Origin: Candidatus Woesearchaeota archaeon
Lineage (GTDB): Archaea; Nanobdellota; Nanobdellia; Woesearchaeales; GW2011-AR9
Assembly (NCBI GenBank): GCA_018696595.1
Contig: JABHQW010000008.1
Location: forward strand, 1 to 64,000
Length of the DNA stretch: 64,000 nt
Reading direction: 5' to 3'
Made by a program: the position numbers and the translations under genes. The notes below the pieces were generated by a model. The model had not been told where the DNA came from and made no database searches. It worked only from the letters and a program-made list of their open reading frames with translations. Shown here piece after piece: positions 10,644 through 26,919 of this stretch (the first letter of the stretch is position 1; every line of letters begins with the position of its first letter).

Positions 10644-13253
10644 TTATTTTCCGGAAAGTGAAAAGTGCATAAAATCTTTTTGGTTTCCAGACCACTCCCC
10701 ACCCCATTTCCAACCAAGATTAACTAAATTTTGATATGCCGGTGAACTTTTAGTAATTGTTCCGGGAAATGATTGATCTCTTAATTTATTCTTACTTCCG
10801 CCATGGCTTAATGAACATTTACTTGAATCCCAAACATTACAATTATCATACAACCCATTATACTCTCGATTAATATCTACTGCCAAACCATAAGGATGTT
10901 GTCCAAACTTTGTTTTAGAACTATAAGTTCTTCCTTCTCTGAAACCCACAACATCAAAAATATTAAAACCAGAATTACAAATATTTTGAATAGCATTTTT
11001 TATTTGTGCTTCATATTTCCAACAGATTTTAAATGAAAGACTTTGCCCATTACAATTAACATTAATTTCTTTTTGATCTTCCCTACAAAGGGTACAACCA
11101 GAACCACTAGGATCAAATACTTCTCCACCGATTTCGGAGTACTTTTTCTGTTTAAGTCCATTATCTTCATAACTACAAGTTTGTGGAGTAACACGATTAG
11201 AATTTAGAGTATTACCAAAATTAGTATTAACACCAGAACTACTTCCAGCAGTTGGATCACAAAATTGTCCTTGTAATTGTTGAATCAAGTTTGTTGGATT
11301 CTGAATATCTTGGTGTTTTTTTGTTAAAGAATCAACTTTACAGTCAGTTGAATAACCATTATTAGGTTCCCACTTAATGTTTTCATCTTTCATGCCAGAA
11401 TACACTTCTAAATGTAACATGGCATCTTTACCATTCGTCCCACAATAACTAGCGACACCGATCTTTTGACCTGGAACAATTGAATCTCCTGGATTAACAG
11501 CAACTTTATCATTATCTATCTCGCCATAATTAATTGTTCTTTTCAATTGAGGATTGTAAACATAAACTGCGGACACTTTTTTATTAATTCCTTGTGCACC
11601 CCAACCATCCTTACATTCGTAAAAATTTTTGACAGCAACAACGGTTCCAGCTTCCAAAGCAACAACAATTCCAGGGGGTTTATTGTAAATATCTATGCCA
11701 ACATGACACCTAGTATTATCATCACGAGGATTACCCCAATTACTACTAATTTTAGTAAAACTATCACTTGTTAAAGGAAAACATTGTCCGGGAGAAGATA
11801 AGGCTAAAATCCCCCCTGGATTACTAAGACTATGAGGAGTACCATAAGAGGGAGAAGACCCCGCAGAACCTTGTTGAATAGTATAATAAACTTTCTTAAT
11901 ATCTTGCCAACTCCAAGCGTTTGTTAAAGTTTTATCCCAAACTTTTCCAACACCTTCACTAGCAACAAAATTACTAACCTTCAACCAAGCTTCATCAATC
12001 TCTTCCTGTCTTTTAGGAAGACCTTTAGGAACTTCCTTATTTTGTCCGCCAGGGGCTTGTTTTTGATATGAAGTAGGGCTGTTTGCAATTGTACCTGAAG
12101 GAGTTTGAACATTTGTCTGCCCGAGAGTAATTGCACCATAAGCAGATGACCCAGAATAAGTCCAAGCCATAGACATTTTTCCAATATTTTTATGACCAAT
12201 ATCTAAAGGGACATAATTAACATTAGGGTGCCCAGGAACTTTAAGTACTTGACCCGTAACTGCTCCAGGAGTTGAAGATTTTTCTTTATCTTTCGTATTC
12301 CATTTAACATTCTCAGTATACCAACTAGCTACCTGAGCATCATATTGGGCACCTAATTGTTTTACAGTAAGAATTGCAAATTGTGTTGGCCGATGAGCAC
12401 CCCTTCTACTTGGATCTTGCACTAACATGTACATCTCGGCATTTGAATTGTATTGTAAATAATGTTCATAAACAAGCAAGGCAGACGGTTGTTCTTCAAA
12501 TGGACTACTAGAACTAAAACCCCACCCATAATCAGAATCTGAGAAAACTATTTTATTCACACCAATAGATTTCAACGCATTATTACTTTTACTTGGACGA
12601 GTAGCACCATGTCTTAATGCTGCACCACCAGCACTATGTCCAACCATAGAAACATAACCAACATCAACCCCTGGATTAAAATTTTGTTTCAAAATATTTA
12701 TTGCATCTTGGTGTAATTGAATCAAATTAGAATCGCCATCCTTCCAAATATCATTTTGATTACTTCTTTTAGCAGTTCCTGCAGACCAGGGCATTTCCGG
12801 AAAAACAATAACGAAGTTTCTTCCTGAACCAGACAATATTTTAGCTTGAGGTGCTACTCTTAAATTCATGTCATTATAACTATCACCATTCCCGTGATAA
12901 GAGAAACCCGTTAAACCATGAAAAAAGTACATCACCTCGATTTTTTTACTGAAGTCAGTAGAACAAGGAACAAAAATAATTGTTTCCCTACCTGTGTCTA
13001 CACGATCATCATTATCATTAGGTCCATTAGATTGTAATTTCCCAATCCAACTTTTTCCCCCCAGGGTTTGTCCACTAATAGCAGCCTTCCAACCATTAAC
13101 AATTTCTTGTCGAGGATTATTCGATTCAATAACTTCATGATTTGTATTTGTACAAGTTGTCGCTCCGAAAGGAACACTTGCAGCTAAAGAGAATGAAGAA
13201 AAGAGAACTAATAGGAAAAATGACAATAAAATAATTATTTTTATTTTCTTCAT
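10644..13253 (-). CDS. Secreted multidomain protein: alpha/beta-hydrolase, shared linker, M23 peptidase, M15 peptidase
   Basis: Signal peptide; FFHG...GHSAGG elbow; HVGID (M23 HxxxD) and MLHLE; C-terminal QHPYGLAVDIN and DFMHFS (M15 Zn motifs). Confidence 0.8.
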   Translation of the reverse strand: MKKIKIIILLSFFLLVLFSSFSLAASVPFGATTCTNTNHEVIESNNPRQEIVNGWKAAISGQTLGGKSWIGKLQSNGPNDNDDRVDTGRETIIFVPCSTDFSKKIEVMYFFHGLTGFSYHGNGDSYNDMNLRVAPQAKILSGSGRNFVIVFPEMPWSAGTAKRSNQNDIWKDGDSNLIQLHQDAINILKQNFNPGVDVGYVSMVGHSAGGAALRHGATRPSKSNNALKSIGVNKIVFSDSDYGWGFSSSSPFEEQPSALLVYEHYLQYNSNAEMYMLVQDPSRRGAHRPTQFAILTVKQLGAQYDAQVASWYTENVKWNTKDKEKSSTPGAVTGQVLKVPGHPNVNYVPLDIGHKNIGKMSMAWTYSGSSAYGAITLGQTNVQTPSGTIANSPTSYQKQAPGGQNKEVPKGLPKRQEEIDEAWLKVSNFVASEGVGKVWDKTLTNAWSWQDIKKVYYTIQQGSAGSSPSYGTPHSLSNPGGILALSSPGQCFPLTSDSFTKISSNWGNPRDDNTRCHVGIDIYNKPPGIVVALEAGTVVAVKNFYECKDGWGAQGINKKVSAVYVYNPQLKRTINYGEIDNDKVAVNPGDSIVPGQKIGVASYCGTNGKDAMLHLEVYSGMKDENIKWEPNNGYSTDCKVDSLTKKHQDIQNPTNLIQQLQGQFCDPTAGSSSGVNTNFGNTLNSNRVTPQTCSYEDNGLKQKKYSEIGGEVFDPSGSGCTLCREDQKEINVNCNGQSLSFKICWKYEAQIKNAIQNICNSGFNIFDVVGFREGRTYSSKTKFGQHPYGLAVDINREYNGLYDNCNVWDSSKCSLSHGGSKNKLRDQSFPGTITKSSPAYQNLVNLGWKWGGEWSGNQKDFMHFSLSGK
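11815..12035. repeat. 221-bp direct repeat copy 1 (shared internal linker of two secreted enzymes)
   Basis: Aligns without gaps to 15802-16022. The 68-bp stretch 11953-12020 is identical to 15940-16007. Confidence 0.95.
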
Positions 13254-13284: not shown

Positions 13285-14109
13285 TTATCTTTCTTTATAA
13301 TAAATAAAGTAAATTGCTAAAATCACAACTAACATTATCGCTAAAACAATAGCAAGATAAATTTGCCAAGCAGTTTTGGTTTGCTTTGTTTCTTGTATTT
13401 CTGATGATTGATATGTCCCCACAAAAAGTGTTTCTTCTGGGACATCTTGTCCATCAAAAGGATCAGTACCAACTTGCTTTTCATATGTGTCACTGTATTG
13501 GTCATGATCAGTATCTGCCCAACCAGGCAGGATATCTTCATTTAGACTGTTTGAATTGCCTCTCAACTCTGCTAAGTTACGGTAACCATCACTATCTAAA
13601 TCTATCCACCACGGCGTGGATTTAGGATTTTCTTTGTCTGTGTTAGAATTATGTTCTTCATAATTATAAAACCCATCTTCATCGGAATCTACACAATCAA
13701 TATCATAATCACCCAAATAATCAAAACATTCTTCTTCATACAATATCACACAAATATTGTCGTTTTGCACACACCAGTTTTCCTCATCTATTTCCCCATA
13801 ATATTCAATAGTATTAGGATTTTCAGTTGGGTCTTCTGGGTCAGTACCAATTACCAGCTCTTCTTCGTTACCAAACCAATCACCATCAGTGTCCCATTGT
13901 GATAAAAAAATATTACAGGCATCTAAATTATTAGCGAGAAGATAGTTTTCAAATCCTGTATCTAGTTCTTGCAATTCGTAACATAGTGCCAAAGTAAGTG
14001 TATCTTCACTAATTTCTGACCCAGATAGTGCCGTTACTAAATAAATCGAACAAAATAAAAATACAAGTACAATAATAGTTTGTTTTGTTTTCTTTTGTTT
14101 TGTTTTCAT
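13285..14109 (-). CDS. Membrane-anchored acidic protein with DxDxDG calcium-binding (thrombospondin type 3-like) repeats
   Basis: N-terminal signal; DTDGDW, DSDEDG, DLDSDG, DTDHDQ repeats each followed by E..GTDP-like segments; C-terminal TM helix. Confidence 0.7.
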   Translation of the reverse strand: MKTKQKKTKQTIIVLVFLFCSIYLVTALSGSEISEDTLTLALCYELQELDTGFENYLLANNLDACNIFLSQWDTDGDWFGNEEELVIGTDPEDPTENPNTIEYYGEIDEENWCVQNDNICVILYEEECFDYLGDYDIDCVDSDEDGFYNYEEHNSNTDKENPKSTPWWIDLDSDGYRNLAELRGNSNSLNEDILPGWADTDHDQYSDTYEKQVGTDPFDGQDVPEETLFVGTYQSSEIQETKQTKTAWQIYLAIVLAIMLVVILAIYFIYYKER

Positions 14110-14153: not shown

Positions 14154-17100
14154 TTAAATATTAAATTGATCCAAAGTATTTCCATTTTCATCCTTAGCCA
14201 CACAATGTAAATTCGCATCGCAACGATAATACCCTCTTGTTTGTAAACAAAATACAGACCCTTGAGTAGGTAAACAGGATCTTGGATTTAGCATCGCACC
14301 AACTTCTAAATGTGTTACCCCCCCTCTAATTACTCTAGCTAATCCATGAGTGTGTCCAGCAAAAGCTAATACTTTATTCCCTTTATTTTTATGTTCCACT
14401 AATAATTCATGCCACTTTCTTGCGCAACCATTACTATGACTCCCAGTAATCTGTGGATAAGCAGGTTTATGATATCCCAACATAATATCTTTGTTAGGGT
14501 TCGCATTCAACTGTTGTTTTAAAAATTGAGTTTCGAAATTACAATTGCCCTCATTATTTAGAATGATTGCTATTAAATTAGAAGTTATAGGCACCACATG
14601 ATGACCACCATTAGACATTTGATTACGGATGTAAGGAAATTCATCACCTAAATTATCGGCAATTGCTTGGTGGCCTTTTCCTTTATAAGTACTCTTGCTT
14701 TCGTGATTCCCCACAATGGCATAAAGAGTCCCTTGCTTAATTAAATCACGTTCATAATTTAAAAACTTTTTCCAATGGTCTTTTCTACCACCATCATCAA
14801 CAAAATCTCCAACATGAAACAATGAAGGGTTGGCACATTCTTTCTTTATACTTTCAAGTGCTATTTTTTGTTTAAGCGTAGGGTTACGAGTATCACCATA
14901 TAATATCAAACAATTTGGATCTTTTACTTGTCCCTGGCCCACGTAAGTTGTTTGAGAAGGTGCTGTTGAACCAGAATTTTTAGCACTTGGACCAGTTGAA
15001 TAACCACTTTGAGATGCTTCCTTACATTTTGAAAAATAAACATAACGTTCTGGTCTATCACCTCCCACATATCTTTTAAAAACTTCTTTAATTTGTTCAG
15101 GAGTCTGTGCATTTTTAGCACCTTTTTTAATCAATTCATCAACCATAGCAACAATATTCTTATGAGGGTCAAAAAGATCACAAAGAGTATAAGTTATTCC
15201 CCCTTGCTCAATCGTAGTGGCCCCAAAATTAGAAGTTAATTGACCCAAACCAATCCCATATCGATAATTAGGATCAAATTTATTCCCATTATTATCACAA
15301 AAATGGGCTTTTGCTAAATTTGGATTGCTGGTAGGCACATTCAATGAATAAGTAGAAGTATCAAAAATTCCTTTAATACAAGGATCTTGTATTGCCTGAA
15401 TACATTGTGCTCTTAATTGTTGTCGTTCACTACTTGATAAACTCCTTCGATTCTCAACCAAATTAACACAACTAGAATGCTTATTTGCTTCAGCATTACA
15501 ATCATTCATCAATTTGCTAGTGCTTGCTTCTGAAAATGGACCATACTGATTTTGACATGCAGGAGATTTATCTAAAAGTAATCTTCTTCTTGCTGAAACA
15601 GTACATCTACCAACATTAGCATCATTACCTACTCTCCACCATTGACCACTAGATTCTTGTTTCACTGTTACCAAACCAAAACAAGGATCAATCCCTTTCT
15701 GTTTAGACACTTCTACAACCTCAGGCAAATAAGTAGTATCTTTATATCCACTAAGACCAGCAAAACTGCCAGATCCTGTTGAGGATAAAGGAAGTGGCCC
15801 GCCAGGATTACTTAAGCTAAATGGAGTCCCATAAGAGGGAGCAGAACCGATAGGAATTTGTTGAATGGTGTAATAAACTTTCTTAATGTCTTGCCAACTC
15901 CAAATGTTAGTCAAAGTTTTATCCCACACTTGATTAACCCCTTCACTAGCAACAAAATTACTAACCTTCAACCAAGCTTCATCAATCTCTTCCTGTCTTT
16001 TAGGAAGTCCCTTAGGAACCTCTTGAGTGGTAAATTGTTGTTGCTGTTGTTGAGAGTAAGGTTGTGCAAATTGCTGATTATTACTAGCCAACTTAGAACC
16101 AGGAGTTATTCCTTGTTGATTATTTGTCTGCTGTTTGATACAACTTGCAATCATCCCATTATGATCATTCTCTGTTACTTGTCCTTCTATCGGAGCAACT
16201 AATTCGACACTAAAAGGATTAAAATTTGCAACACTCTCTTTAGGAGCAAAATAATAATAAGCGTCAGTATTGTAAGCATAACGTAAACAATAAGCAACTG
16301 CCTTAACATGACGATGATCAGAAACAACTAACACTTTTTCTCCTGGTTGAATATAACCTTTTGAGTTTTGTAAGTTAGCAGCAGTGTCTCCAGACTTAGT
16401 TTCTTTAATGACGGCAATCTTAGAATGTATATTTTGGTCAAGTGTTAACAAATACGTTTCCATTTCTGTAGCTTCATTACAACCACCACTACAAGTCTGA
16501 CAGGTTGCATCTTTATCTGTTTCAACACAACCACCAGTTAAAATTAATTTTTTAAAATTATTTCCTACACTAATCAAATCATAACCTGCTCTTACTCGAT
16601 TTTCCATCTCTGAACGCAGATGTCTTCCAAGAATCATCATCGTATCAAACTCTTGCAAATTTGCCGAATTGGTTAAATAAGTACTTGTAGCTTGTTCTGT
16701 TGTTATTTGTCCCCCAAACACTTCGCTAAAAACTTTATTTGACATTGCTTGATATCCAGCAGTATTTGGATGAACATTGCCACAAGAAGAAGCATAATTT
16801 GAATTCATACAAGGTTCTTGACTAACAAGAAGTTGATAAAAATCTACCACACCACCAATATTCCCAATTTCTTTTTGTGTTCTTATCCAGACATTAATTT
16901 CTTTAACTACATTATTCTTTTCTACACTATTTTGTTTGTTATATGGGGGAATTGTTCCAGCTATGACCTTAATATTGTTATTTCTTGCTAAAAAATAGAT
17001 CTGTTCTAAATTTGCAATCACATCAGGGGCAGACTTGCCCCCACTAATATCATTAGTCCCACCAAGAACAATTAAATGAGTATATCCTTTATTAAGAATC

Positions 17101-17348
17101 TCTGATTTAAGTTTAGTTAACATCCAGGGAGTCCATTTCCCACTAACAGCATAATTAATGGGTTGATTTCCACAAGATTGAATAAATTGAGGACCCCAAC
17201 CAACAGTAATAGAATCACCTAATAAAGCAATTTTATTACTATTACAAGAATCAGCTAAGACAGAGAAAGATAACCAAGAAATAAATAAAAAAATAACAAC
17301 TAACAAAAACAATAATTTACCTTTCCCTCTTTTTCTGTCCCCAAACAT
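14154..17348 (-). CDS. Secreted multidomain protein: SGNH hydrolase, DUF218-like, shared linker, SLT/lysozyme-like, metallophosphoesterase
   Basis: GDSI/GTND/HPN (SGNH); GG...EA.EM..YL...ETKSGDTAAN...VSDHRH (DUF218-like); QESSG...GLGQL...LFDPHKNI (SLT-like); GDT/GDFVD/GNHE/GHTH (calcineurin-like). Confidence 0.8.
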   Translation of the reverse strand: MFGDRKRGKGKLLFLLVVIFLFISWLSFSVLADSCNSNKIALLGDSITVGWGPQFIQSCGNQPINYAVSGKWTPWMLTKLKSEILNKGYTHLIVLGGTNDISGGKSAPDVIANLEQIYFLARNNNIKVIAGTIPPYNKQNSVEKNNVVKEINVWIRTQKEIGNIGGVVDFYQLLVSQEPCMNSNYASSCGNVHPNTAGYQAMSNKVFSEVFGGQITTEQATSTYLTNSANLQEFDTMMILGRHLRSEMENRVRAGYDLISVGNNFKKLILTGGCVETDKDATCQTCSGGCNEATEMETYLLTLDQNIHSKIAVIKETKSGDTAANLQNSKGYIQPGEKVLVVSDHRHVKAVAYCLRYAYNTDAYYYFAPKESVANFNPFSVELVAPIEGQVTENDHNGMIASCIKQQTNNQQGITPGSKLASNNQQFAQPYSQQQQQQFTTQEVPKGLPKRQEEIDEAWLKVSNFVASEGVNQVWDKTLTNIWSWQDIKKVYYTIQQIPIGSAPSYGTPFSLSNPGGPLPLSSTGSGSFAGLSGYKDTTYLPEVVEVSKQKGIDPCFGLVTVKQESSGQWWRVGNDANVGRCTVSARRRLLLDKSPACQNQYGPFSEASTSKLMNDCNAEANKHSSCVNLVENRRSLSSSERQQLRAQCIQAIQDPCIKGIFDTSTYSLNVPTSNPNLAKAHFCDNNGNKFDPNYRYGIGLGQLTSNFGATTIEQGGITYTLCDLFDPHKNIVAMVDELIKKGAKNAQTPEQIKEVFKRYVGGDRPERYVYFSKCKEASQSGYSTGPSAKNSGSTAPSQTTYVGQGQVKDPNCLILYGDTRNPTLKQKIALESIKKECANPSLFHVGDFVDDGGRKDHWKKFLNYERDLIKQGTLYAIVGNHESKSTYKGKGHQAIADNLGDEFPYIRNQMSNGGHHVVPITSNLIAIILNNEGNCNFETQFLKQQLNANPNKDIMLGYHKPAYPQITGSHSNGCARKWHELLVEHKNKGNKVLAFAGHTHGLARVIRGGVTHLEVGAMLNPRSCLPTQGSVFCLQTRGYYRCDANLHCVAKDENGNTLDQFNI
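15802..16022. repeat. 221-bp direct repeat copy 2
   Basis: Encodes EVPKGLPKRQEEIDEAWLKVSNFVASEG...SLSNPGG, as in copy 1. Confidence 0.95.
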
Positions 17349-17369: not shown

Positions 17370-17978
17370 TTAACCAATTAATTCTTCATAATCTTCTTCG
17401 TAGTACTCTTCACTAAAATCTTCAACATAAACCACCTGGAATTTTTTAACCAAAGTAGTTTTCTTTGTCAACAATGGATTCTCAATAAATAATTCCATGG
17501 TGTATTCTCCTTCTGGCAATCCTTGATTAACAATAAAAAAGTCTTTGAATGTAACATCTTCAGTTTCCTTATTACTTGTCAGATCAAAATTAAAATTGTT
17601 ACTTTCATCAACCTCCAATAACAGTTCTCCGGTCGGACCTTTAATTCGATAGTTCTCCACTAACATAATATCCCCATTATAAGTGCTACTTTCAACAGTA
17701 AAAATAAAATGAATCTCCGAACCAAGATCAAAAGTTTCAATTTCATTCATACAATTATAATCAAAATCAATGAAATCACAAAACTTAAAATCCTTGATTG
17801 TCAAATATCCTTCCCTGGTAACAGGGATAAAATTAGCATTTAAAACTGAAACTTGTTCATTTTCTGCTTCAACTGTAATAGTTCCAGTTTGGACCAACAA
17901 TAAAATAATTGCACTCGTAATAACTACCACAATTAGCATTACTAAAATTTCAGTCATTACTTTTCCTTGTTTATTCAT
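17370..17978 (-). CDS. Pilin-like protein (probable class III signal peptide) with acidic beta-sandwich domain
   Basis: MNKQG-KVMTEILVMLIVVVITSAII N-terminus. Confidence 0.55.
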   Translation of the reverse strand: MNKQGKVMTEILVMLIVVVITSAIILLLVQTGTITVEAENEQVSVLNANFIPVTREGYLTIKDFKFCDFIDFDYNCMNEIETFDLGSEIHFIFTVESSTYNGDIMLVENYRIKGPTGELLLEVDESNNFNFDLTSNKETEDVTFKDFFIVNQGLPEGEYTMELFIENPLLTKKTTLVKKFQVVYVEDFSEEYYEEDYEELIG

Positions 17979-17986
17979 CTTTTATT

Positions 17987-20900
17987 TTATTCTGGGAGAC
18001 AACAATACATTATGGCACTACTACCGCACCCGTGTTCAAGACCTAAACTATCTGCCCACGCTTGTGTTGAATACATTCCCCTACTCCAACATTGTGGTGT
18101 AGTTGGCGGACTTCCAGGAAGGTTACTTGAAGATAATAATGCACCTCCAGTTGGAGTCCTACAAACATAAGTGTTCCAATTATTTGGTTGCCAACCAGCA
18201 GGATAATTTGTTGCGATTTGGAAATTTGCATCTTTATGACCACAAGTTCCTGTTACTGGAGAAGTTGTATCTAAAGAAGCACCATCAGTAACACCTGCAC
18301 CAGTAATATCAATATTACATTGTGCTTTATCTTTAATAATTGTTAAATATTTTCTAATCTTCTCATAATCTGGTTTCTCATTACCAAGTGTTCCAGTCAC
18401 ACCCTCTGGATAAGGTTGTCCAATGTTCCCAAACCCATAATCTCTTTCAAAGAATGTTTTTAACATACTACAAACTTTAAATTTAGAATCCTGATTTTGA
18501 ACCCAGTTTTCTCCTCCCAATAAAATATGACAAGCAGCAGAATAATACACAGCAATAGCATCTTCAACATCATTATTCTTCCGATCTAATATTTTTCCAG
18601 ACCGTGCTAAAACTTCTGCACAATTACCTACCATATAATCCTGATGTAATTGGCTAGCTTGCTGAGCAACTAAAGGTTGTAGTGTTAAAGTAATTGATTC
18701 AGTATGTTCCGACCTTCCAAACGTAGGGGCTTTGACCCCAATATTTGCATTGAAACAACCATTTTGTCCGTCTGGCATTAATAACTTAGCAGTTACTGAA
18801 ATTGAGCTTTGTCCTAATGAAGAAATTGACGAACCACCAGCAGAATAAACGCAAGATGTTTTGCCATTACCTACTGTTGGAGCACCAACAAGATTAGTAT
18901 ACTTCAAACCACCAAAATTAAATATTGTTGCTTTGATTTCTTGTGGAGTCAATAAGTCTTTGCCATCTTTTCTTAATACAGATTCTAATCCTTGTGGGAA
19001 TTCAGTATAACCGGCTGGACCTTCAACAGTTACTCCTGAAGGAAATTTAACACGATATTGGTTTCCAACTTTCTCAAAAATAAACGGATAATCTTTTGAT
19101 TGCACGGAAGCTCCAGAAGAACCATAAGCAAAAGGTTGACTACAACCTGGAGCACTACTTGATGTATCTAAAGTTAATTTCCCACTACCACCAGAAAACA
19201 TCCCTTCGTTAACTGTACCTAAACCTTGAATTTCAATTGCAAAAGGCCCAGGTAAACCCTTTGGAAGAGGATCAGCAGGAGGGAATTGAGATGAATAACT
19301 ATTTAGAGGATCAGACTGTTGATACAATCCAGAGACAGAAGTTCTTAAACAATAATCTCCACCATCAGTCATCATGTGTACTTTAACTCTTATTGGGTCT
19401 CCTTTTGAGAATACACCTGGAGTTTTACAACCAATCCAAGATTGTGTTCTTTGATCATAACAACTCATGTAAGGGTCTTCTAAATAAACCCCTGCCCCAG
19501 AACCAAACATTTTCTGAACCTCTGGGCAGAAGTATCTTCCCGTAGCAGGTTGTACTTGACAAATAAATTCTGCAGGTGCAGAAGTATCAATGATAGGATA
19601 ATAAAATACGCCATCGCGATAACCTTCATCAAAACATTTTTCCGATTCTTCATAAGCATCTAAGTTTAATTTTACAACAACATGATCATATCGATAACTG
19701 GAATCAACTTTTTGTGGTGCGGGTATTTCTAAATCAACAAATGAACCAGATTTAAGATCTCTAATTCTACCATGTTCAACATTATAAGTTTTTTCAGACT
19801 CTAAGTTACTAGACTCTTCTGTGATGTGTAAACAATCACAACCTTGCCCTTCACAGCTTACTCCGGGACGATCTAAATCTTCTTGCCCAACACATTTCAA
19901 GGAAACATCAACACTTTTAATCTTACATCCCGGAAGCACCATCGCGCCTAAGTTATAATTGTAAACTGCCGAACCTTTCTGGGGATTAAAAGTAGCTAAC
20001 TCTCTTTCAGCTGGGAAAACCATAACAGTAGTTTTTCCTGAAACAGCGTATGCAGAATCCAAAATGAAGTCTGTTCCCATCGGCCAATCATAACCAAATG
20101 CAGCCATACAAATTGATTGAGTAAATCCTTTAGAACCAGCAGCAAAATATTGGTTAAGTTGAGCATTACCATAATCACTTTTAATATCATCAATTGAAGA
20201 TTGCATTGCTTCTCCGATTGATTCAATTCCTGCTTTAAAACCAAAACCTAAGCTATCCAATAAACCGCCACTTTCTCCTTTGGCTTGATCACCAGCAGTA
20301 TTAGCGCTACAATCATTATAAAAATAAGCAATAATCTTGTAAACTAATCCACAGACGTGTTGTGAAAAAATAGTTTTACAAACTCCCGCATCTGTCAAAC
20401 CAGAAATCTTAGCTTCTTCGATACAATTTCTAAATCCTTCTAAGATGCTCTTCAATGTAATTAACTGGGCTCTAACTCTAGACAAACAAATTGTTTGGTA
20501 AGCTCCTAAAAATTGAGTGTGAGGATTAACTTCATGAACTTCTTTATTCTCTCCCTTCAAATAATCTAATAAATAATCTGCTCCAAAAGCTGAAGAAGTG
20601 TCTCTTACAGAATAATATCTCCATTCAGGATAGTAAGTCCCCCCATTACCAGAACTTTCTCTAAACAATGTTCCTTGCCTATAACTCCATCGTTCAGATT
20701 CCTCACCAACTTCTTTAGCCGCAACTCTGACACCACTATAACCTTTAGTGTTATTAATATCTTCAGCCACGCAAACACATTGTAATAATCCAGTGTAACC
20801 TGTGTCTGGTTTCTTAGCTACTAATGTGCTTGTTGAAGCTGTTTGTGTTACAACCCCTTCAACAATGCAAATATTATTTTTACCACAAAAAGAATTATTT

Positions 20901-23900
20901 CCAAGTTCTGTTTTACAAATTGCATCACTTTGACACTGAACTGTTGAGGCAGAAGCTTGTCCTGTTTGTTCCAAATCAACAAAACAATCCGAAGTATAAC
21001 CCGCAGGGTATCTTGGGCCTTTCAATAATCTGCCATTAGTGTCGTCTGCTGTTTCAGCTATTGGTTCACCTAAATTTGTTGAATCTTTAGAGTTTCCAGA
21101 CTGATCTGTAAGTTCGCCCTGCTCATTTTCTCTAATTATAATTGTCTGTTCATCAGAGTCGGCAGCAGGTTCAGGGATTTCCACTCCACCCTCTAAAACA
21201 ATATTCTTCCCAGAAAACTTTTCTGCATAACAGCCATGTTGTACGGCCCCTTTCTCTTGTTCATTAGCAATATTCTTCACACTTTTAGTAACATCATATT
21301 CATAACCCGGTTTCCTTAAACTTTGACAAACATATTCACAACTTCTATCTTGACCAACAATAAAGTTATTTGCTTTTGGAGGTTTGTAAGCAATTAATTT
21401 CTGAGGAACATCTTGAGCAATCGCACTTAAACCACCAGTATTTAATTTTCTTCCAAAGTCATAAATTAAACTTAACTCTCTAGTTTCTCCACCTCGTACC
21501 ACCGACTTTGAAGCCCCACCAGTATCTATATATAAACGATCATTGTAACGGTAACAAGTACTTCCTCCTTTACTGATAAACTCTGCAGTTCTTTGGTTAG
21601 GCATAGAAGAAACATGATTTTTTTCAATGATTTCATTACAATTCTCAATTTCTTGTAGTGGAACCCCTGAAGCAGAAACTGAACATTGACTTTGTTTAAG
21701 AACAACAGTATCAACTTCTGCTTTATCTTTTGATGCAGTCCAACCCGCAGGAACTGCTCGACAATAAACCCGATCACAAGTCCATTTGTATAATTGATCA
21801 AGAGCAGCCTCAGCTTTCCACATTCCTGCCGTGCTTGGACAAACATCATCTAAAGAATATCCTTCAGCATTCCAATCTTGTTTTACATTCCCGTCAGTGT
21901 ATCCAATAGAATCATAATCACCTGGATTAGTTCCTGGTTGATTGAATAAACCACTAACTTCACTCCAATGATCTACTGTTTTCTTCAATAATAAGTTACT
22001 TTGATCCTTGGGGCATTTTTTCCCTTCAGCATCAGCACCAACTGCACTTGAAACTTTAGAAGAATAAGATTCATATTTAGCAGTAAATATTCTTAACCAT
22101 CTTACAACCATCCTTCCAAGGAATGAACCAATACAAGCATAACCAGCCACAAGAACTGCATCTTCAATGTAAGGCAGGATATTATCTATTAAATTAATAG
22201 TTTCATCAACAACAGTTAATCCTTCATCAGCTAACCAATCTGGGATCATGTCTGCACTATCAATAGGAATATCAACAAAATAACTTAAATCATAACAAGA
22301 CGTTTGAGTTTTTACCGGCCCAAGATTCCCATTACCATCCCTCTCTTGATAACTAACTCTAATCTTCATCGGAAAAACTATTTGTCTTTTCTTGAAATCA
22401 TTCCAGAAATCGCCATCCTTATCACTTAACTTTTCTGCACTATGTAAATTATAAGTTAAGTACCAAGCAGTTTTATCATTGTTAGAAATCTTTCTAGGAT
22501 GTGGGGGCATAACATTACATCCCAACTTAGTACTTTCGTCTTCCATCATTCCTGATGTACACGCCCGATCAAAACTAACACTATTGACTTTAAATGCTTC
22601 ACCCTCTGGAAGAATCTGCCCAGAGTTCTGATCTTTCTTAGCCTGTCCAGAACCCCGATAACTCAAATTAAATACCGCGGTTGCTTCTTCCCTACCATCA
22701 TCCAATAACCCAGGATCTAAACGTAATGGTCTTTGAAATTCAGGAACTGAACGAATATCAAAATCCCAATCAGAGGAATAACAGGTGTTAACAGTAACAG
22801 TAGTTTGAGCAAAAGCAGTTTTTCCACTTTTATCTTCTGCAACTAAAAAAACATGATATGTCCATTGCTGTTGATCAACAACAGTAGAAGTTGGAAAGAT
22901 AGAATAATCTAACAAATTTTGAGGAACTTCTTTTGGGGCCAAATTTTCCAGACTTACTGGTTCGCTTTCAAAATCAACATCTTTAAATTTAAAAGTCCCA
23001 TTTTGGTCGGCAGTAACCTTTGCCCAAGCACGATCAAACTTAGGACTATAATCATAACCAATTGGCCGATAAACAAACAAGTAAATATCCGCCCCAGCTT
23101 CAGTCTCACCATCAATTGATGATTCTGCTCGGCCCTGATAATATTCCTGCCCTTTTGAAATGTCAAATTTAAGAGTTGGTGCTTTTGTATCTGCACCGAT
23201 AACTATTTCTTTAATCGTTTCCCAACCAGCCACATCTTTGGCAACAATCTTAATAATATTTTCACCTTCTTCTAAAGAGAGAGATTCTTTAATTTCAACT
23301 CCAGTCCCATCTGCTTCAGATTCATTATTGACAAAAACTTCATAATCAGATTCTTCAGAAATTGTTGCCACTAAATCAAAACTCCCTTGGTCAACTATTT
23401 CAGGAATATCAGCAACAGTTATTTGGGGCTTACTCCCATCTGCAAACACAGTTCCAGAGAATTGAGCAGAATTACCAGCAGCATCAATTACTTCTATTCC
23501 TATTTGATTATCCTTATCCTTGCCAACAATAACATTATTAAACACGAACTTACCATCCAAATTTTCTGGCTTGTCTTCCTCTTCTTTATCTTCTTGATTT
23601 TTATCCCATAAAGCTTTTCCATACGGCGCTTCTAAATAACTAAAACTAATTGCACTTCCAACTAAAGCTTTTTCCTGATCATAAATTTCATCAACAAAAT
23701 CTTTTTTGTTATTAAAACCTAATGCTGAAAAATCTAATCCCTTTTCATAAATAACGTAAGGAACATTTTCTCCATCTTCTTTTCGATTATAGCAACCATT
23801 AAGTCCTTCATACTTGTTCTCAGAAGCACAACTAGAATCAACAGTTGTAAAATAACCACCAGCAGGATCAACTGCTTTCCAAGCACCATCAATATAAACA

Positions 23901-24910
23901 TCCGCAAAAACATGACCTAAGAAAGGACTATCAACTTTTTCACCAGCATTAACTTTCTCTAAGAAATCCTGTTGGATCGTTTCAACATAAATTGCAGGAA
24001 TTCCTTTAGCTCTTGCTAAAGTTATAAACACTAATGCAAAATCAGTACAACCACTAAACTCTCCTTTTTCAATAATTTCTTCAGCAGTAAGACTTCCTTT
24101 AGCTAAAGAGTCAATATCTTTGTGTTCTAAATTGTCTTGGATCCAAGAAATAATATTCTCCGCAATCTCTTTATCAGAATCTCCAGTAATTAAATCGGCC
24201 ATTTTCTGGATTGCAGGAGTGACTTCTGTTTGTTCACCTGTTTGTAAATATTTAGTTGCTAAAGCAGGAAGTTCTTCTTCAGGAGTTTCACTTTCAATCA
24301 TTTCACTTTCATTTACTGGACCCTCAATTTCCTCTTCAACATCTTCAACAACAGTTTCTTTATTATCATCAAAAGCATCTTCAATAACTAAGTTTTCTTC
24401 AAACTCAGATTTAGCAACAGTACTACCAGCAAAAGCGTCGTTAACATAAAGCTTAACATTCATTCCTGGTTCGGTCCAACCAACAAGGTCAAATTTCCCG
24501 CCTGGAATCATTTTCGGAAGATTAACATAAACTTCGGGAGCAGTAGTGTCTGGAACTAATGTTCTGAATGAGTATAAGTTTCCAGAATTGTCATCAACAG
24601 TTCCAGAACTTTCAACATTGTAAAAATATTCCTGATCTTCATTAAGATTCTCTAACGACATCTCGTGCTCAGTTAATTCCTTAGCATCGCCTATCTTTTG
24701 CAAACTTTCTTTATTATCTCCGTAACTTACAAAACTACTTCCAGCTTCATCAGTATCCCATTTAATTACAGCACCATTCTCTGTAATATCTTCTGCACTA
24801 ATACCCGAAATTTCTAACGCGTTAACTAAAGGCAAATTAACAAATAGAGCAATAACTATCAAAACCAATAACTTCCTGTTCAGTATTCTTGTAAATTTTT
24901 CTCTCATCAT
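17987..24910 (-). CDS. Giant (2307 aa) secreted surface protein: FN3/Ig-like repeats, transglutaminase-like domain, Cys-rich regions
   Basis: Signal peptide; FN3-like (WDTDE...H...L.NL....YFY.V); GCTDF...GHVFADVY...D triad; D..GN Ig-like strands; C-terminal C...CC motif. Confidence 0.75.
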   Translation of the reverse strand: MMREKFTRILNRKLLVLIVIALFVNLPLVNALEISGISAEDITENGAVIKWDTDEAGSSFVSYGDNKESLQKIGDAKELTEHEMSLENLNEDQEYFYNVESSGTVDDNSGNLYSFRTLVPDTTAPEVYVNLPKMIPGGKFDLVGWTEPGMNVKLYVNDAFAGSTVAKSEFEENLVIEDAFDDNKETVVEDVEEEIEGPVNESEMIESETPEEELPALATKYLQTGEQTEVTPAIQKMADLITGDSDKEIAENIISWIQDNLEHKDIDSLAKGSLTAEEIIEKGEFSGCTDFALVFITLARAKGIPAIYVETIQQDFLEKVNAGEKVDSPFLGHVFADVYIDGAWKAVDPAGGYFTTVDSSCASENKYEGLNGCYNRKEDGENVPYVIYEKGLDFSALGFNNKKDFVDEIYDQEKALVGSAISFSYLEAPYGKALWDKNQEDKEEEDKPENLDGKFVFNNVIVGKDKDNQIGIEVIDAAGNSAQFSGTVFADGSKPQITVADIPEIVDQGSFDLVATISEESDYEVFVNNESEADGTGVEIKESLSLEEGENIIKIVAKDVAGWETIKEIVIGADTKAPTLKFDISKGQEYYQGRAESSIDGETEAGADIYLFVYRPIGYDYSPKFDRAWAKVTADQNGTFKFKDVDFESEPVSLENLAPKEVPQNLLDYSIFPTSTVVDQQQWTYHVFLVAEDKSGKTAFAQTTVTVNTCYSSDWDFDIRSVPEFQRPLRLDPGLLDDGREEATAVFNLSYRGSGQAKKDQNSGQILPEGEAFKVNSVSFDRACTSGMMEDESTKLGCNVMPPHPRKISNNDKTAWYLTYNLHSAEKLSDKDGDFWNDFKKRQIVFPMKIRVSYQERDGNGNLGPVKTQTSCYDLSYFVDIPIDSADMIPDWLADEGLTVVDETINLIDNILPYIEDAVLVAGYACIGSFLGRMVVRWLRIFTAKYESYSSKVSSAVGADAEGKKCPKDQSNLLLKKTVDHWSEVSGLFNQPGTNPGDYDSIGYTDGNVKQDWNAEGYSLDDVCPSTAGMWKAEAALDQLYKWTCDRVYCRAVPAGWTASKDKAEVDTVVLKQSQCSVSASGVPLQEIENCNEIIEKNHVSSMPNQRTAEFISKGGSTCYRYNDRLYIDTGGASKSVVRGGETRELSLIYDFGRKLNTGGLSAIAQDVPQKLIAYKPPKANNFIVGQDRSCEYVCQSLRKPGYEYDVTKSVKNIANEQEKGAVQHGCYAEKFSGKNIVLEGGVEIPEPAADSDEQTIIIRENEQGELTDQSGNSKDSTNLGEPIAETADDTNGRLLKGPRYPAGYTSDCFVDLEQTGQASASTVQCQSDAICKTELGNNSFCGKNNICIVEGVVTQTASTSTLVAKKPDTGYTGLLQCVCVAEDINNTKGYSGVRVAAKEVGEESERWSYRQGTLFRESSGNGGTYYPEWRYYSVRDTSSAFGADYLLDYLKGENKEVHEVNPHTQFLGAYQTICLSRVRAQLITLKSILEGFRNCIEEAKISGLTDAGVCKTIFSQHVCGLVYKIIAYFYNDCSANTAGDQAKGESGGLLDSLGFGFKAGIESIGEAMQSSIDDIKSDYGNAQLNQYFAAGSKGFTQSICMAAFGYDWPMGTDFILDSAYAVSGKTTVMVFPAERELATFNPQKGSAVYNYNLGAMVLPGCKIKSVDVSLKCVGQEDLDRPGVSCEGQGCDCLHITEESSNLESEKTYNVEHGRIRDLKSGSFVDLEIPAPQKVDSSYRYDHVVVKLNLDAYEESEKCFDEGYRDGVFYYPIIDTSAPAEFICQVQPATGRYFCPEVQKMFGSGAGVYLEDPYMSCYDQRTQSWIGCKTPGVFSKGDPIRVKVHMMTDGGDYCLRTSVSGLYQQSDPLNSYSSQFPPADPLPKGLPGPFAIEIQGLGTVNEGMFSGGSGKLTLDTSSSAPGCSQPFAYGSSGASVQSKDYPFIFEKVGNQYRVKFPSGVTVEGPAGYTEFPQGLESVLRKDGKDLLTPQEIKATIFNFGGLKYTNLVGAPTVGNGKTSCVYSAGGSSISSLGQSSISVTAKLLMPDGQNGCFNANIGVKAPTFGRSEHTESITLTLQPLVAQQASQLHQDYMVGNCAEVLARSGKILDRKNNDVEDAIAVYYSAACHILLGGENWVQNQDSKFKVCSMLKTFFERDYGFGNIGQPYPEGVTGTLGNEKPDYEKIRKYLTIIKDKAQCNIDITGAGVTDGASLDTTSPVTGTCGHKDANFQIATNYPAGWQPNNWNTYVCRTPTGGALLSSSNLPGSPPTTPQCWSRGMYSTQAWADSLGLEHGCGSSAIMYCCLPE

Positions 24911-26919
24911 TTTACTTCTGGTTTAGGCAAAATTAAACTATGTTCCTTTAACCCCAACATTAATTCCACCATTTCATCTTCATTTGGATTCTTTTTAGTA
25001 ATAGTATGGAAAATAATTTCGTTAACATTTTCTAATTTGTTCCAAGGAACAGTCCATTCTCCTTTATATCCACCAACAAACTCTTCTTCGTTAAAGACAT
25101 GTACTTCCACATCATAGGTAAAGTCTGCTTTAGCCATTAATTCAACTTTCTGATCCTCCAAGAATTGGTCACTTAATCCAGAAGAACGAACAAAGTTAAT
25201 ATCATGAGTAATTTCTTTCTCAGAATAATTCCATGGTTGAAGTTTCATGGTAATCAAAGCCAACTCATCTTGAGTCGCACTTTCTGCATTTCCAAATAAA
25301 AGATCCCCGCCAATAAATAATTCATGTTTGACAATCTTAATTTTGCTAAGCGGAACTTTAATAGTTGGTATTAAGTTTAATTCAACTTCTTGGCCATCTT
25401 TAGTAACAACCCGTTGCCAATCTTCTTTGTAACTATCTTTAGTTCCCCTCAGAATACCACCAACGCAATAAGGAAAGTTTGTTGAGAAACCAGCATAACC
25501 TAATCCCGCATAATCATATTCAGTTTTACCAATTTCACATTGATATTGTAAACAACTAAATTCAACATCAACTTCATCTAAATCTTCGGTGTAAGCTACA
25601 CCCTGACCATTTTCAACAAATTCATAAGTTTTTACAGTCATTGGAACTTTTCTTTGAACACAGTAATCTTCTAAAGTTTCAGTAGGGAACATGTAAGAAG
25701 GTCTTGATTCTGGATTACCTCTACTTGGCTGATTTGCAACTAAATGAACAGTAAAAGCCATGTTAAAATTATAACCTGTTGTTTCATCTCTTAAGTTTAC
25801 GGTTACTGGATACATTAAATCATAAGTGAACTTCCAACTTTGGATGCATAAGAAAGATAATTGTTCTGCCCCACCCAGACTAGAACTTTTTAATTTTGAG
25901 CCAGAAACTGGAGTTACTGCAAAAACATAAGGAAAACTAGAATCAAAATTAAAAATTACATTAACATCAGAATCAGCATAATCATCTCCTAAGTCCCAAA
26001 CATAATGATTATCATAATAAGTTAATCCGTCTTCATACGCTGGATAATAATTTGTTGGGAATTCAACAACATCTGTATCTTTAATTCTTAACTGTCTTAA
26101 ATTTACTCTCACTAATTCTAATAAAGTTTCTTCTGCTTCTTTAACACTCCAGGTTTTTTTGTTACAACTTAATGTCATTCCAGCAGCAGGAACTTTAGGA
26201 TGTTCTAAAGCAATTAAATCTTGAGTAAGGTCTTCAAGTTTAAGTGTATCCATCTCCTTTTCAATAATTCTCTCAGCCAATTTGTGTAAGCGTTTTAACT
26301 TGGCCGGATTCTCAGTTACGTGATTAATTACTTCGGAAACGACTTCTCCACCCTTATTTCTAACCTCAACATCCCAATGAACATTAAAAATAACTTTACT
26401 TTCTACAATTTCTGTATTCGCAGTGATGTCACTTTTTTCAATTAAATCATAAGATTCTTGAAAAGCTTCTAAATCAAATAAACAAGGTCTTAAATTTTCT
26501 TCGATATAAGTGTCAATTCTTTCCTTAATTAAAAGAATTGAAGGAACATTTACGTTCGGACCAGAAGCCCAAAATGGAACTGTATGTATTGGAGATATTT
26601 TTAACCCATAATTAGCATCATTAAGAGAATCTTCAGAGATTTTAATATATCCCCCTTGCGAACCAATAATTAACAACGCATCTTCTCCCACTTGATCCAT
26701 ACAAGTTGTAATGAAATTTTCAACTTTACCTTTCTCTGTAGGAATGATTTCTTCGGTTTTAAACGAGATTACTTCTTTCTTTAACGCTATTACTAAGACC
26801 AAAGCTAGTAACATTAAAATCCCAAGAATAATGAAAATAGTAATCTGGCCTTTCTTAGATCTAGGTTTAGCAGAAAAAGCTCTAATTACATCTAATTTAT
26901 ACCTCTTTTTGTTATTCAC
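24907..26919 (-). CDS. Large pilin-like protein with class III signal peptide
   Basis: SKKG-QITIFIILGILMLLALVLV, followed by paired Cys motifs (TTCMDQ, RPCL, CLQYQC). The stop overlaps the start of the giant gene. Confidence 0.7.
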   Translation of the reverse strand: MNNKKRYKLDVIRAFSAKPRSKKGQITIFIILGILMLLALVLVIALKKEVISFKTEEIIPTEKGKVENFITTCMDQVGEDALLIIGSQGGYIKISEDSLNDANYGLKISPIHTVPFWASGPNVNVPSILLIKERIDTYIEENLRPCLFDLEAFQESYDLIEKSDITANTEIVESKVIFNVHWDVEVRNKGGEVVSEVINHVTENPAKLKRLHKLAERIIEKEMDTLKLEDLTQDLIALEHPKVPAAGMTLSCNKKTWSVKEAEETLLELVRVNLRQLRIKDTDVVEFPTNYYPAYEDGLTYYDNHYVWDLGDDYADSDVNVIFNFDSSFPYVFAVTPVSGSKLKSSSLGGAEQLSFLCIQSWKFTYDLMYPVTVNLRDETTGYNFNMAFTVHLVANQPSRGNPESRPSYMFPTETLEDYCVQRKVPMTVKTYEFVENGQGVAYTEDLDEVDVEFSCLQYQCEIGKTEYDYAGLGYAGFSTNFPYCVGGILRGTKDSYKEDWQRVVTKDGQEVELNLIPTIKVPLSKIKIVKHELFIGGDLLFGNAESATQDELALITMKLQPWNYSEKEITHDINFVRSSGLSDQFLEDQKVELMAKADFTYDVEVHVFNEEEFVGGYKGEWTVPWNKLENVNEIIFHTITKKNPNEDEMVELMLGLKEHSLILPKPEVK

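Follow-up and report, generated by a model that had tools for sequence, protein, structure and literature searches.

A putative four-domain hydrolase of bacterial envelopes in a conserved surface locus of a Woesearchaeota-type archaeon

Results

A conserved surface locus in a murein-free archaeon

The gene P0001 (14154..17348, minus strand; ORF list and translation) encodes a protein of 1064 aa and is hydrolase 1 of a six-gene surface locus that is syntenic among relatives, with orthologues at the same syntenic position in the loci L001, L002, L021, and L022. Hydrolase 2 (P0014, 869 aa; 10644..13253, minus strand) combines an M23-like with an M15_4 peptidase according to Pfam and carries a 55-aa module shared with P0001. 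Between the two hydrolase genes, in a conserved position, lies the gene for a 274-aa TSP3-repeat (DxDxDG) protein with a C-terminal transmembrane anchor (13285..14109, minus strand; Pfam, NCBIfam, translation, and synteny). Upstream in the locus (17370..26919, minus strand; ORFs, Pfam, translations, and synteny) are genes for a 202-aa N-terminally anchored protein, a 2307-aa giant surface protein with a transglutaminase core and a Pur_ac_phosph_N domain in Pfam, and a 670-aa protein. In all relatives the locus is flanked by housekeeping genes, PAC2 on one side and enolase/RelA on the other. The window, by which we mean the whole 64,000-nucleotide stretch analyzed, also carries salvage-type genes (an AMP phosphorylase-like gene, a PfkB kinase, and a phosphorylase-PRTase fusion), and an Rfam search of it found no family.

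The host is a Woesearchaeota-type DPANN archaeon. Genes for TFIIB (TFB), GatD, PAC2, and TrmB are present on the same contig as P0001, whose named relatives are Candidatus Woesearchaeota, and a bacterial contaminant or a mobile element is ruled out by these archaeal markers together with uniform GC and the flanking genes common to all relatives. The host genome is 1.19 Mb in size and 97% complete, and searching it for GT51, PBP transpeptidase, and SEDS yielded nothing, while bacterial controls were positive; its single Mur_ligase_M match is uninformative, since archaeal control genomes match this family too. Remodeling of a wall of its own is thereby ruled out, and the murein targeted by P0001 would therefore be foreign.

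Domain composition of P0001

Pfam matches, fold comparison, and motifs together show that an SGNH esterase, a DUF218 domain, an SLT-like domain, and a phosphoesterase are indeed joined in one polypeptide, as had been read from the DNA in a preliminary description. Residues 1–32 (17253..17348, minus strand), in which a basic n-region, a hydrophobic core at 12–30, and V-L-A preceding D33 can be read from the translation, are a predicted signal peptide or anchor. P0001 contains 28 cysteines, eight of them conserved within its GH23 domain, which fits an extracellular, disulfide-bonded protein.

The SGNH/GDSL esterase domain (aa 35–215; 16704..17246, minus strand) was assigned by Pfam PF13472 (57.7 bits against a curated cut-off of 32.9, E 2.8e-15) and PDB matches. 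S46 of the block I GDS, G70 (II), N99 (III), and H193 (V) are present and conserved in orthologues. The triad Asp of the block V DxxH is absent, the position being G190 in P0001 and N or D in orthologues; SGNH enzymes with a Ser-His dyad exist. The PDB matches include 3p94 (E 1.4e-12) and the acetyl-xylan esterases 7tog/7toj; among proteins of solved structure, the domain is closest to acylhydrolases from Bacteroidetes and to acetyl-xylan esterases. No Ape1 chain was found among the PDB matches at E ≤ 1. O-acetylation at MurNAc C6 stops lytic transglycosylases (LTs) as well as lysozymes, a block that SGNH esterases lift (PMC6174289), and in Neisseria Ape1 and an LT cooperate physically (PMC7083599). 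Of the Ape1-type removal of O-acetyl groups suggested earlier, the block itself is known (PMC6174289); the P0001 domain is not detectably an Ape1 relative. The two systems share an SGNH esterase linked with an LT and the rationale that an LT can act only once C6 has been de-O-acetylated (PMC6174289, PMC7083599); in P0001, however, the two domains are covalently fused, and its SGNH domain has no detectable similarity to Ape1, is without the triad Asp, and has carbohydrate acetyl-esterases as its closest matches.

The DUF218/Upr-like domain (aa 225–400; 16149..16676, minus strand) matches PF02698 with 43.3 bits (curated cut-off 27.6, E 4.2e-11; 47.5 bits in the genome scan) and contains a Cys-rich insert with C274, C283, C286, and C290. 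It was aligned with E. coli SanA and ElyC using MAFFT, with a register uncertain by ± 1 at the His site. R251, E292, and T322 are invariant from E. coli SanA through the archaeal proteins, T322 corresponding to the catalytic SanA T125, and the catalytic Arg (SanA R152) is K349, always K or R. The catalytic His (SanA H149) has no conserved counterpart: it aligns with R346, in a column reading R/D/N/E/K/P/H among relatives, and a His on either side of it, at 345 and 347, appears in one subgroup only; the region around the catalytic Glu (SanA E182) is unalignable, even between SanA and ElyC. According to a preprint (10.64898/2026.10.14.759067), DUF218 (Upr) enzymes hydrolyze the bond that joins C55-PP to the sugar in lipid II and in nascent glycan. 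To the earlier description of DUF218 as envelope-related this adds a biochemical activity of the family; in P0001 the catalytic set is only partly conserved. UprA/SanA, UprB/ElyC, and UprC/YgjQ (10.64898/2026.10.14.759067) resemble the P0001 domain in being extracytoplasmic DUF218 proteins with the catalytic Thr, with Arg matched by Lys/Arg, and with an association with murein metabolism; P0001 differs in the catalytic His, the unalignable Glu, and the Cys-rich insertion, and in being an archaeal protein, predicted to be secreted, with DUF218 fused to hydrolases, whereas the Upr proteins are housekeeping periplasmic enzymes. A mention of DUF218 in a paper on polymorphic toxins (PMC3482391) actually concerns DUF2185 and is irrelevant.

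A Gln-rich low-complexity linker (aa 405–443; 16020..16136), the Trp-rich 55-aa module (aa 444–498; 15855..16019; BLASTP, alignment A6, and DNA repeat), and a Ser/Gly/Pro-rich linker (aa 499–537; 15738..15854) follow, and a Ser/Thr/Gly-rich linker (aa 784–812; 14913..14999) lies farther downstream, all on the minus strand, with the linkers read from the translation. The module, for which no family match was found, has P, EID, W, K, WD, W, and Y as invariants in alignment A6 and is present in one copy per hydrolase gene in the compared syntenic loci, hydrolase 2 of L002 excepted. P0001 and P0014 are 68% identical over 119 aa around it by BLASTP, and their two copies, also seen as a DNA repeat, are 94% identical over a 54-aa core, compared with 38–52% between genomes. 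Co-folding of the module with the TSP3 protein or the 202-aa protein scored 0.01, which speaks neither for nor against docking.

A divergent GH23 domain that escapes profile libraries

The Cys-rich GH23/SLT-like domain (aa 538–783; 15000..15737, minus strand) is recognizable by E565-S566, GLGQ (700–703), DPHKNI (727–732), and YVGG (760–763); ES and GLGQ are separated by a conserved, Cys-rich helical insertion of ~ 130 aa. Pfam gave no family at E ≤ 1 for residues 380–830, and neither on this middle region nor on the whole protein did Pfam or NCBIfam show an SLT match or NCBIfam any family. The one gene matched in a genome scan with PF01464 (SLT) is a different one, located on contig C6. When the profile of alignment A2 was searched against PDB sequences, only a chance match to YaxA emerged. 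A structure model and structural alignments nevertheless place the domain in the goose-type lysozyme/LT fold, so that the lysozyme fold of the SLT-like region, which had been set beforehand as a check, was borne out. Bacterial LTs rather than chitinases gave the best fold matches; GH23 also includes chitinases, such as 3w6b. E565-S566 and G-L-G-Q are invariant among the 20 family members in A2, Y and G of YVGG are conserved in at least 90%, and hhalign against the canonical SLT domains of relatives gave a probability of 73.5% and E 3e-5 over GLGQ..YVGG. E565-S566 falls at the end of helix 26–37 in the domain model, and in the structural alignments Glu565 lies, by residue offset, at most two residues from MltE E64 and P. 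aeruginosa Slt E503; the titles of the matched PDB entries name MltE-E64Q and Slt E503Q. Compared with family 1 LTs (MltC, MltE, MltF, and Slt70; PF01464, GH23), to which the P0001 domain has no Pfam or PDB sequence match, it is distinguished by the insertion, the eight conserved cysteines, and an archaeal host.

The C-terminal metallophosphoesterase and a possible degeneracy of domains

The calcineurin-like metallophosphoesterase domain (aa 813–1064; 14157..14912, minus strand) matches PF00149 with 30.0 bits against a curated cut-off of 21.5. At the five metal-binding motifs of the family (DxH, GDxxD, GNH[DE], H, and GHxH), P0001 reads GD819(TR), GD848FVD, GN881HE, H960, and GH999TH1001. It thus has motifs II, III, and V, and close orthologues retain H960; motif I (GDTR) keeps the Asp without the His, and four of seven close orthologues have Asp in place of the first motif V His, with the second His kept. 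This metal-binding pattern resembles that of purple acid phosphatases, which also lack the motif I His. The AF2 model is poor (pLDDT 61), and Foldseek with this low-confidence model gave weak matches to purple acid phosphatases/phytases, PP5, and Rv0805. A PDB profile search of the domain returned weak or chance matches only, and the ESM Atlas only generic Metallophos clusters.

The non-conserved Upr His, the two deviating His positions of the metallophosphoesterase, and the poor C-terminal model raise the question of whether only some of the domains are catalytic, with DUF218 and/or the metallophosphoesterase serving as degenerate binding or spacer modules. This explanation deserves some weight, though we think it unlikely. 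No part of P0001 is better conserved than the C-terminal domain (75–88% identity among orthologues), which, as in purple acid phosphatases, keeps GD, GDxxD, GNH, H960, and the second motif V His; in DUF218, the three invariant residues likewise argue against decay.

Module shuffling and rarity of the architecture

In relatives, the same catalytic modules are permuted between the two adjacent hydrolase genes, with canonical SLT, Amidase_2, M15_4, M23, CE4, DUF2272, and Hydrolase_2 as partner domains, which are murein-specific or wall-related. SGNH, the 55-aa module, and SLT form a recurring minimal unit in P0036, P0038, and P0012, and the near-identical module in both hydrolase genes may be a recombination hinge.

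Rarity of the full architecture, another check set beforehand, was also found: it is rare rather than common, with ~ 15 protein clusters in 5.8 billion, and absent from 300 other genomes of the host's order. Close orthologues of P0001 are present, unannotated, in public metagenomes. The statement that the architecture occurs in no described protein holds only narrowly, as large extracellular murein-transglycosylase proteins have been published for Woese/Pacearchaeota (PMC8204110, PMC9723730).

Discussion

P0001 is probably a secreted modular enzyme that degrades the bacterial envelope together with its M23/M15 partner, breaking through or digesting the wall of a bacterium that is host, prey, or neighbor to the archaeon. 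Four catalytic modules and the small Trp-rich module would be carried on flexible low-complexity linkers. The SGNH domain would act as a carbohydrate O-deacetylase that frees the MurNAc C6-OH, and the divergent GH23 domain would then cut the MurNAc-β-1,4-GlcNAc bond with Glu565 as the single acid/base; the recurrent SGNH-SLT pairing would be explained because LT chemistry needs a free C6-OH. The DUF218/Upr-like domain may act on a sugar-1-phosphate (phosphoacetal) linkage, for example C55-PP-MurNAc of lipid II or nascent strands, and the purple-acid-phosphatase-like metallophosphoesterase may remove phosphate esters; a teichoic-acid or capsule phosphodiester, as proposed for it at the outset, is a conceivable substrate. 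P0001 would work with the adjacent M23/M15 peptidase, both being encoded in the conserved surface locus. Sequential action on a bacterial wall, as first proposed, is reasonable given the recurrence of SGNH and SLT in relatives, the O-acetyl block (PMC6174289), and the lack of murein synthesis genes, while the order of the steps is one that we infer.

This places P0001 as a rare variant of already reported murein-attacking DPANN proteins, a concept that is itself published. Murein transglycosylase proteins of Woese/Pacearchaeota have been read as tools of attack or attachment (PMC8204110, 2021; Vigneron et al. 2022, PMC9723730), with Rinke 2013 and Castelle 2015 cited there as earlier reports. 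The members of that family (fam00969 in PMC8204110) reach 3000 aa and were recognized by a canonical LT domain. They share with P0001 a DPANN host, predicted extracellular location, a GH23-type domain, and an interpretation as binding or degrading the bacterial wall (PMC8204110, PMC9723730); going by the descriptions, P0001 is set apart by its length of ~ 1000 aa, an LT domain that escapes Pfam, and the additional SGNH, DUF218, and metallophosphoesterase domains. Archaeal peptidoglycan hydrolases kill bacteria (Strock et al. 2025, PMC12352652), and these, like phage endolysins and T6SS/bacteriocin murein effectors, are modular glycan- and peptide-cleaving wall hydrolases directed against other cells. 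P0001 differs from them in predicted chemistry, with four activities in one chain, two of them on phospho-linkages, and its gene is chromosomal and syntenic, without phage or T6SS context. A murein-free producer would need no immunity protein.

The same chemistry could serve feeding rather than attack if it were applied to free wall debris (necromass) of bacteria, from which an archaeon of reduced metabolism would gain amino sugars, acetate, and phosphate. The small genome and the salvage-type genes are consistent with this, as is the apparent secretion of P0001 without a C-terminal anchor, and the PAP-like phosphatase and the deacetylase would yield usable phosphate and acetate. Feeding on debris nevertheless appears distinctly unlikely, as the gene is located in a conserved surface locus with a giant adhesin-like protein and membrane-anchored proteins, which fits contact-dependent action.

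A farther-reaching version of the attack, which we regard as quite improbable, would make the four modules one machine for clearing MurNAc C6 substituents, all of which block LT chemistry, combined with a weapon against the lipid carrier. The Upr-like DUF218 domain, of a type known to cleave sugar-C1-O-phosphate bonds, would detach wall teichoic acid or secondary polymers by breaking the GlcNAc-1-P-6-MurNAc linkage; alternatively, it would release lipid II and nascent strands from C55-PP in the membrane of the victim. After this step, the residual 6-phosphate would be removed by the PAP-like phosphatase and the 6-O-acetyl by SGNH, leaving the glycan to be cut by the Cys-rich GH23 domain. If true, no Upr-type enzyme would have been seen before in an offensive role or outside bacteria, and the antibacterial mode of action would be new.

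A target other than murein, whether another acetylated β-1,4 glycan (chitin or exopolysaccharide) or surface glycans of the cell itself or of an archaeal host, such as Dol-PP-linked glycans for DUF218, seems very improbable: the acetyl-xylan esterases nearest to the SGNH domain, the chitinases within GH23, the known DPANN hosts, which are archaea, and small stand-alone DUF218 proteins, which 43 of 300 further genomes from the order encode and which indicate use of this domain in murein-free cells as well, are outweighed by the bacterial LTs as best fold matches, by the murein-peptide specificity of the domains swapping into the same scaffold (Amidase_2, M15_4, and M23), and by the β-1,3 links and exclusively L-amino acids of pseudomurein.

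A large part of archaeal diversity belongs to the DPANN archaea. A murein-directed enzyme set in a murein-free genome supports interaction with bacteria, be it attack, attachment, or feeding, beyond archaeal hosts alone, and the locus shows how such weapons may diversify, with two neighboring genes trading modules from one constant catalytic repertoire. Current profile libraries miss a GH23 subfamily whose large insertion is rich in disulfides, and archaeal LT counts based on Pfam/CAZy are therefore underestimates. Given the lipid II cleavage newly reported for its family, the extracellular DUF218/Upr-like domain that P0001 joins to wall hydrolases is a candidate for a new antibacterial enzyme activity.

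Domain composition and rarity of hydrolase 1

The gene on the minus strand at 14154-17348 was found to be a single unbroken open-reading frame of 1064 codons, separated from the upstream co-oriented gene by 21 nt. When Pfam domains were counted only above the curated thresholds, its product, hydrolase 1 (P0001), contained three, Lipase_GDSL_2 (the SGNH domain, residues 43-201, E 2.8e-15), DUF218 (residues 235-361, E 4.2e-11), and Metallophos (residues 842-1002, E 8.8e-7), and these together with a GH23-type middle confirm the composite protein proposed in the preliminary description; each of the SGNH, SLT-like, and phosphoesterase motifs it named was present at the expected position. The N-terminus has a basic stretch and a hydrophobic core followed by V-L-A preceding Asp33, and thus looks like a Sec signal peptide; the 28 Cys residues would also fit an extracellular protein. 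The architecture is rare, with 15 proteins recovered from 5.8 billion clusters by searching at near length and four loci by a scan of 185,579 species with one genome each, and no description of this four-domain combination was found in the literature. A sample of 300 further genomes of this order yielded no divergent GH23 domain.

The SLT-like middle domain

Residues 380-830 gave no Pfam match, even at E ≤ 1, and no solved structure was matched by the sequence of the SLT-like middle. An exhaustive phmmer search of 1.84 billion representatives with residues 440-815 recovered just 31 proteins, and the 20 covering residues 530-800 were aligned (alignment A2). The Glu-Ser pair E565-S566 is invariant in this alignment, as is the G-L of GLGQ (700-703), with its G-Q conserved in at least 90%, and DLFDPxKNI and YVGG blocks and eight conserved Cys are also present. 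The spacing from ES to GLGQ is ~130 residues, as against ~15 in P0012 and similar relatives with a canonical SLT. In a profile-profile comparison with Pfam-positive canonical SLT domains from the same position in paralogue-type relatives, the GLGQ..YVGG region paired with GLMQ..YNxG (probability 73.5%, E 3e-5). An AlphaFold2 model from A2 was confident (pLDDT 91.4, pTM 0.84). Foldseek of this model against the PDB returned no significant match; an alignment-everything search ranked lytic transglycosylases at the top (MltF 10.7, MltE 10.6, Slt 10.0, g-type lysozyme 8.9, Slt70 8.6, MltD 8.6), with a lysozyme-like fold in nearly all of the 50 chains listed, and the closest ESM Atlas clusters were SLT transglycosylases. 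When the offset is counted from where the aligned ranges begin, E565 (residue 36 of the model) lies within two residues of MltE E64 and P. aeruginosa Slt E503, which are sites of inactivating mutations according to the PDB entry titles. The proposed lysozyme fold was not refuted, since model and structural alignment place the region among the lytic transglycosylases, and the middle of P0001 is a GH23-type fold that retains the predicted catalytic Glu-Ser pair. It represents a divergent GH23 subfamily with an insertion, which current profiles miss.

A third type of middle domain, also without a Pfam match, occurs in P0004, P0005, and P0008 (L001:10001-13036, L002:9992-13198); it keeps an ES motif and several Cys, aligns neither with canonical SLT nor with A2, and could represent a further hidden domain of lysozyme-like type. 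The divergent GH23 group has a distant member in the metagenomic protein P0040 (494 aa), where it is fused to a T4SS_pilin domain, suggesting that in another lineage the domain may also be used by machinery for secretion or conjugation. Elsewhere, the window's own genome has a second gene, a 470-aa open frame (G000:C6:266998-267417, L010), with a canonical SLT domain recognised by Pfam (80.5 bits).

The flanking catalytic domains

The SGNH domain contains Ser46, Gly70, Asn99, and His193, and the position of the triad Asp is Gly190, which is N or D in orthologues. Its closest solved structures are uncharacterised Bacteroidetes acylhydrolases and the acetyl-xylan esterases 7TOG/7TOJ (PMC9105624); Ape1 is absent from these. 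Assignment as a putative carbohydrate O-deacetylase is well supported, and we infer O-acetyl-MurNAc specificity from context. Lytic transglycosylases are known to be blocked by 6-O-acetylation (PMC6174289), and a minimal architecture of SGNH, module, and SLT recurs in P0036, P0038, and P0012.

The DUF218 enzymes SanA, ElyC, and YgjQ were renamed UprA, UprB, and UprC in an October 2026 preprint and are reported there to cleave lipid II by hydrolysis at its C55-PP-sugar phosphoacetal bond, UprA acting also on that bond in nascent glycan strands, through a Thr-His-Arg-Glu cluster (T125, H149, R152, and E182 in SanA) (10.64898/2026.10.14.759067). When E. coli sanA and elyC were aligned with the archaeal domains, T125 corresponded to an invariant T322 in P0001 and R152 to K349, in a column of only K or R, whereas H149 fell in a variable column (R346 in P0001) and was not conserved; in one subgroup His residues lie on either side of this column (345 and 347), and in another they are missing, and the region of E182 was not alignable. 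The domain is thus an Upr-family member with an only partly conserved catalytic set and a putative activity. Elsewhere in the order, DUF218 was found in 43 of 300 other genomes, only in open frames of ~150-310 aa, and such small stand-alone Upr-like proteins are fairly common (44 of 301 genomes with the window's own, e.g., L011-L020, and including the unpublished genome G245). The organisms carrying them are without murein, and these proteins may act on archaeal lipid-linked glycans.

The metallophosphoesterase domain retains GD, GDFVD, GNHE, H960, and GHTH, and its motif I is GDTR, lacking the His that is likewise absent from purple acid phosphatases. These phosphatases were the top, weak Foldseek matches of a low-confidence model (pLDDT 61). 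The same slot in the relatives P0010, P0011, and P0033 is occupied by an endonuclease/exonuclease/phosphatase domain, which argues for a putative phospho-ester-cleaving function at this C-terminal position.

Module shuffling at a conserved locus

Gene order at the locus was the same in every relative examined: PAC2, a protein of ~660 aa, a giant surface protein of 1700-2300 aa, an N-terminally anchored protein of ~200 aa, hydrolase 1, a C-terminally anchored TSP3-repeat protein of ~270 aa, hydrolase 2, enolase, and RelA/SpoT. The catalytic modules of the two hydrolases are permuted between genomes. Across the orthologous loci compared (L021:10001-16644, L002:9992-16114, L022:10001-16216), DUF218 lies in the first hydrolase gene, the second, or both, and the middle slot is occupied by a canonical SLT, the divergent Cys-rich SLT, or the third type. 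In L021, hydrolase 1 is SGNH, the same divergent GH23 domain as in P0001, and Metallophos without DUF218, which sits in hydrolase 2; L002 has DUF218 in both. P0001 with its four domains is thus a single arrangement drawn from a shuffled toolkit and not an obligate fusion.

A Trp-rich 55-aa module belonging to no family (residues 444-498 of P0001) is present as one copy in each hydrolase gene of L021, L022, and the window. L002 has one in hydrolase 1, and none was detected in its hydrolase 2. The window's two copies share 94% protein identity, compared to 38-52% between genomes, indicating gene conversion or recent recombination. Module and linker form a ~250-nt repeat (11787-12035 and 15774-16022; ungapped DNA identity 82%, and ~90% within the module core, which includes ~68 consecutive identical nt) in hydrolase genes that are otherwise unrelated.

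This archaeon encodes a full-length RelA/SpoT-type protein (7434-9329, minus strand; HD_4, RelA_SpoT, TGS, ACT), and its gene adjoins the locus in relatives too (L022, L023). Another large surface-type protein, of 1418 aa, with Ig-like domains and a weak Nup98-type autopeptidase S59 match is encoded at 43200-47456 on the plus strand.

Host and target

The contig belongs to an archaeon, encoding TFIIB, GatD, PAC2, and TrmB around the P0001 gene at an even GC of ~33%, and relatives with names are Candidatus Woesearchaeota. Three MAGs with close orthologues (L001-L003) have records titled 'uncultured Methanosarcinales archaeon', which look like generic or wrong labels because their gene content and synteny fit a Woesearchaeota-type locus. 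The genome (1.19 Mb, 8 contigs, 97% complete, 0.4% contaminated) yielded no GT51 glycosyltransferases, PBP transpeptidases, or SEDS proteins; each family was found in 10 of 14 control genomes, all 10 bacterial. The archaeon therefore makes no murein, and the substrate of P0001 must be foreign. The domains interchanging in its relatives, canonical SLT, Amidase_2, M15_4, M23, polysaccharide deacetylase, DUF2272, and SleB-type Hydrolase_2, are murein-specific or wall-related.

Large extracellular murein transglycosylase proteins of Woese- and Pacearchaeota have been read as wall-binding or wall-degrading tools against bacteria (PMC8204110, PMC9723730), and archaeal peptidoglycan hydrolases were shown to kill bacteria (PMC12352652). 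New relative to these studies are the domain combination, a GH23 subfamily invisible to profiles, an Upr-like domain inside a secreted archaeal hydrolase, and the shuffling of modules at a fixed locus. The function first proposed, successive de-O-acetylation, glycan cutting, and phosphodiester hydrolysis, is partly supported: the GH23 fold and the O-deacetylase-type SGNH domain fit it, Ape1 was not among the solved relatives of the SGNH domain, and the phosphodiester step is hypothetical. We consider it reasonably probable that P0001 is a secreted multi-enzyme that would strip and cut bacterial murein, with the adjacent peptidase as its working partner.
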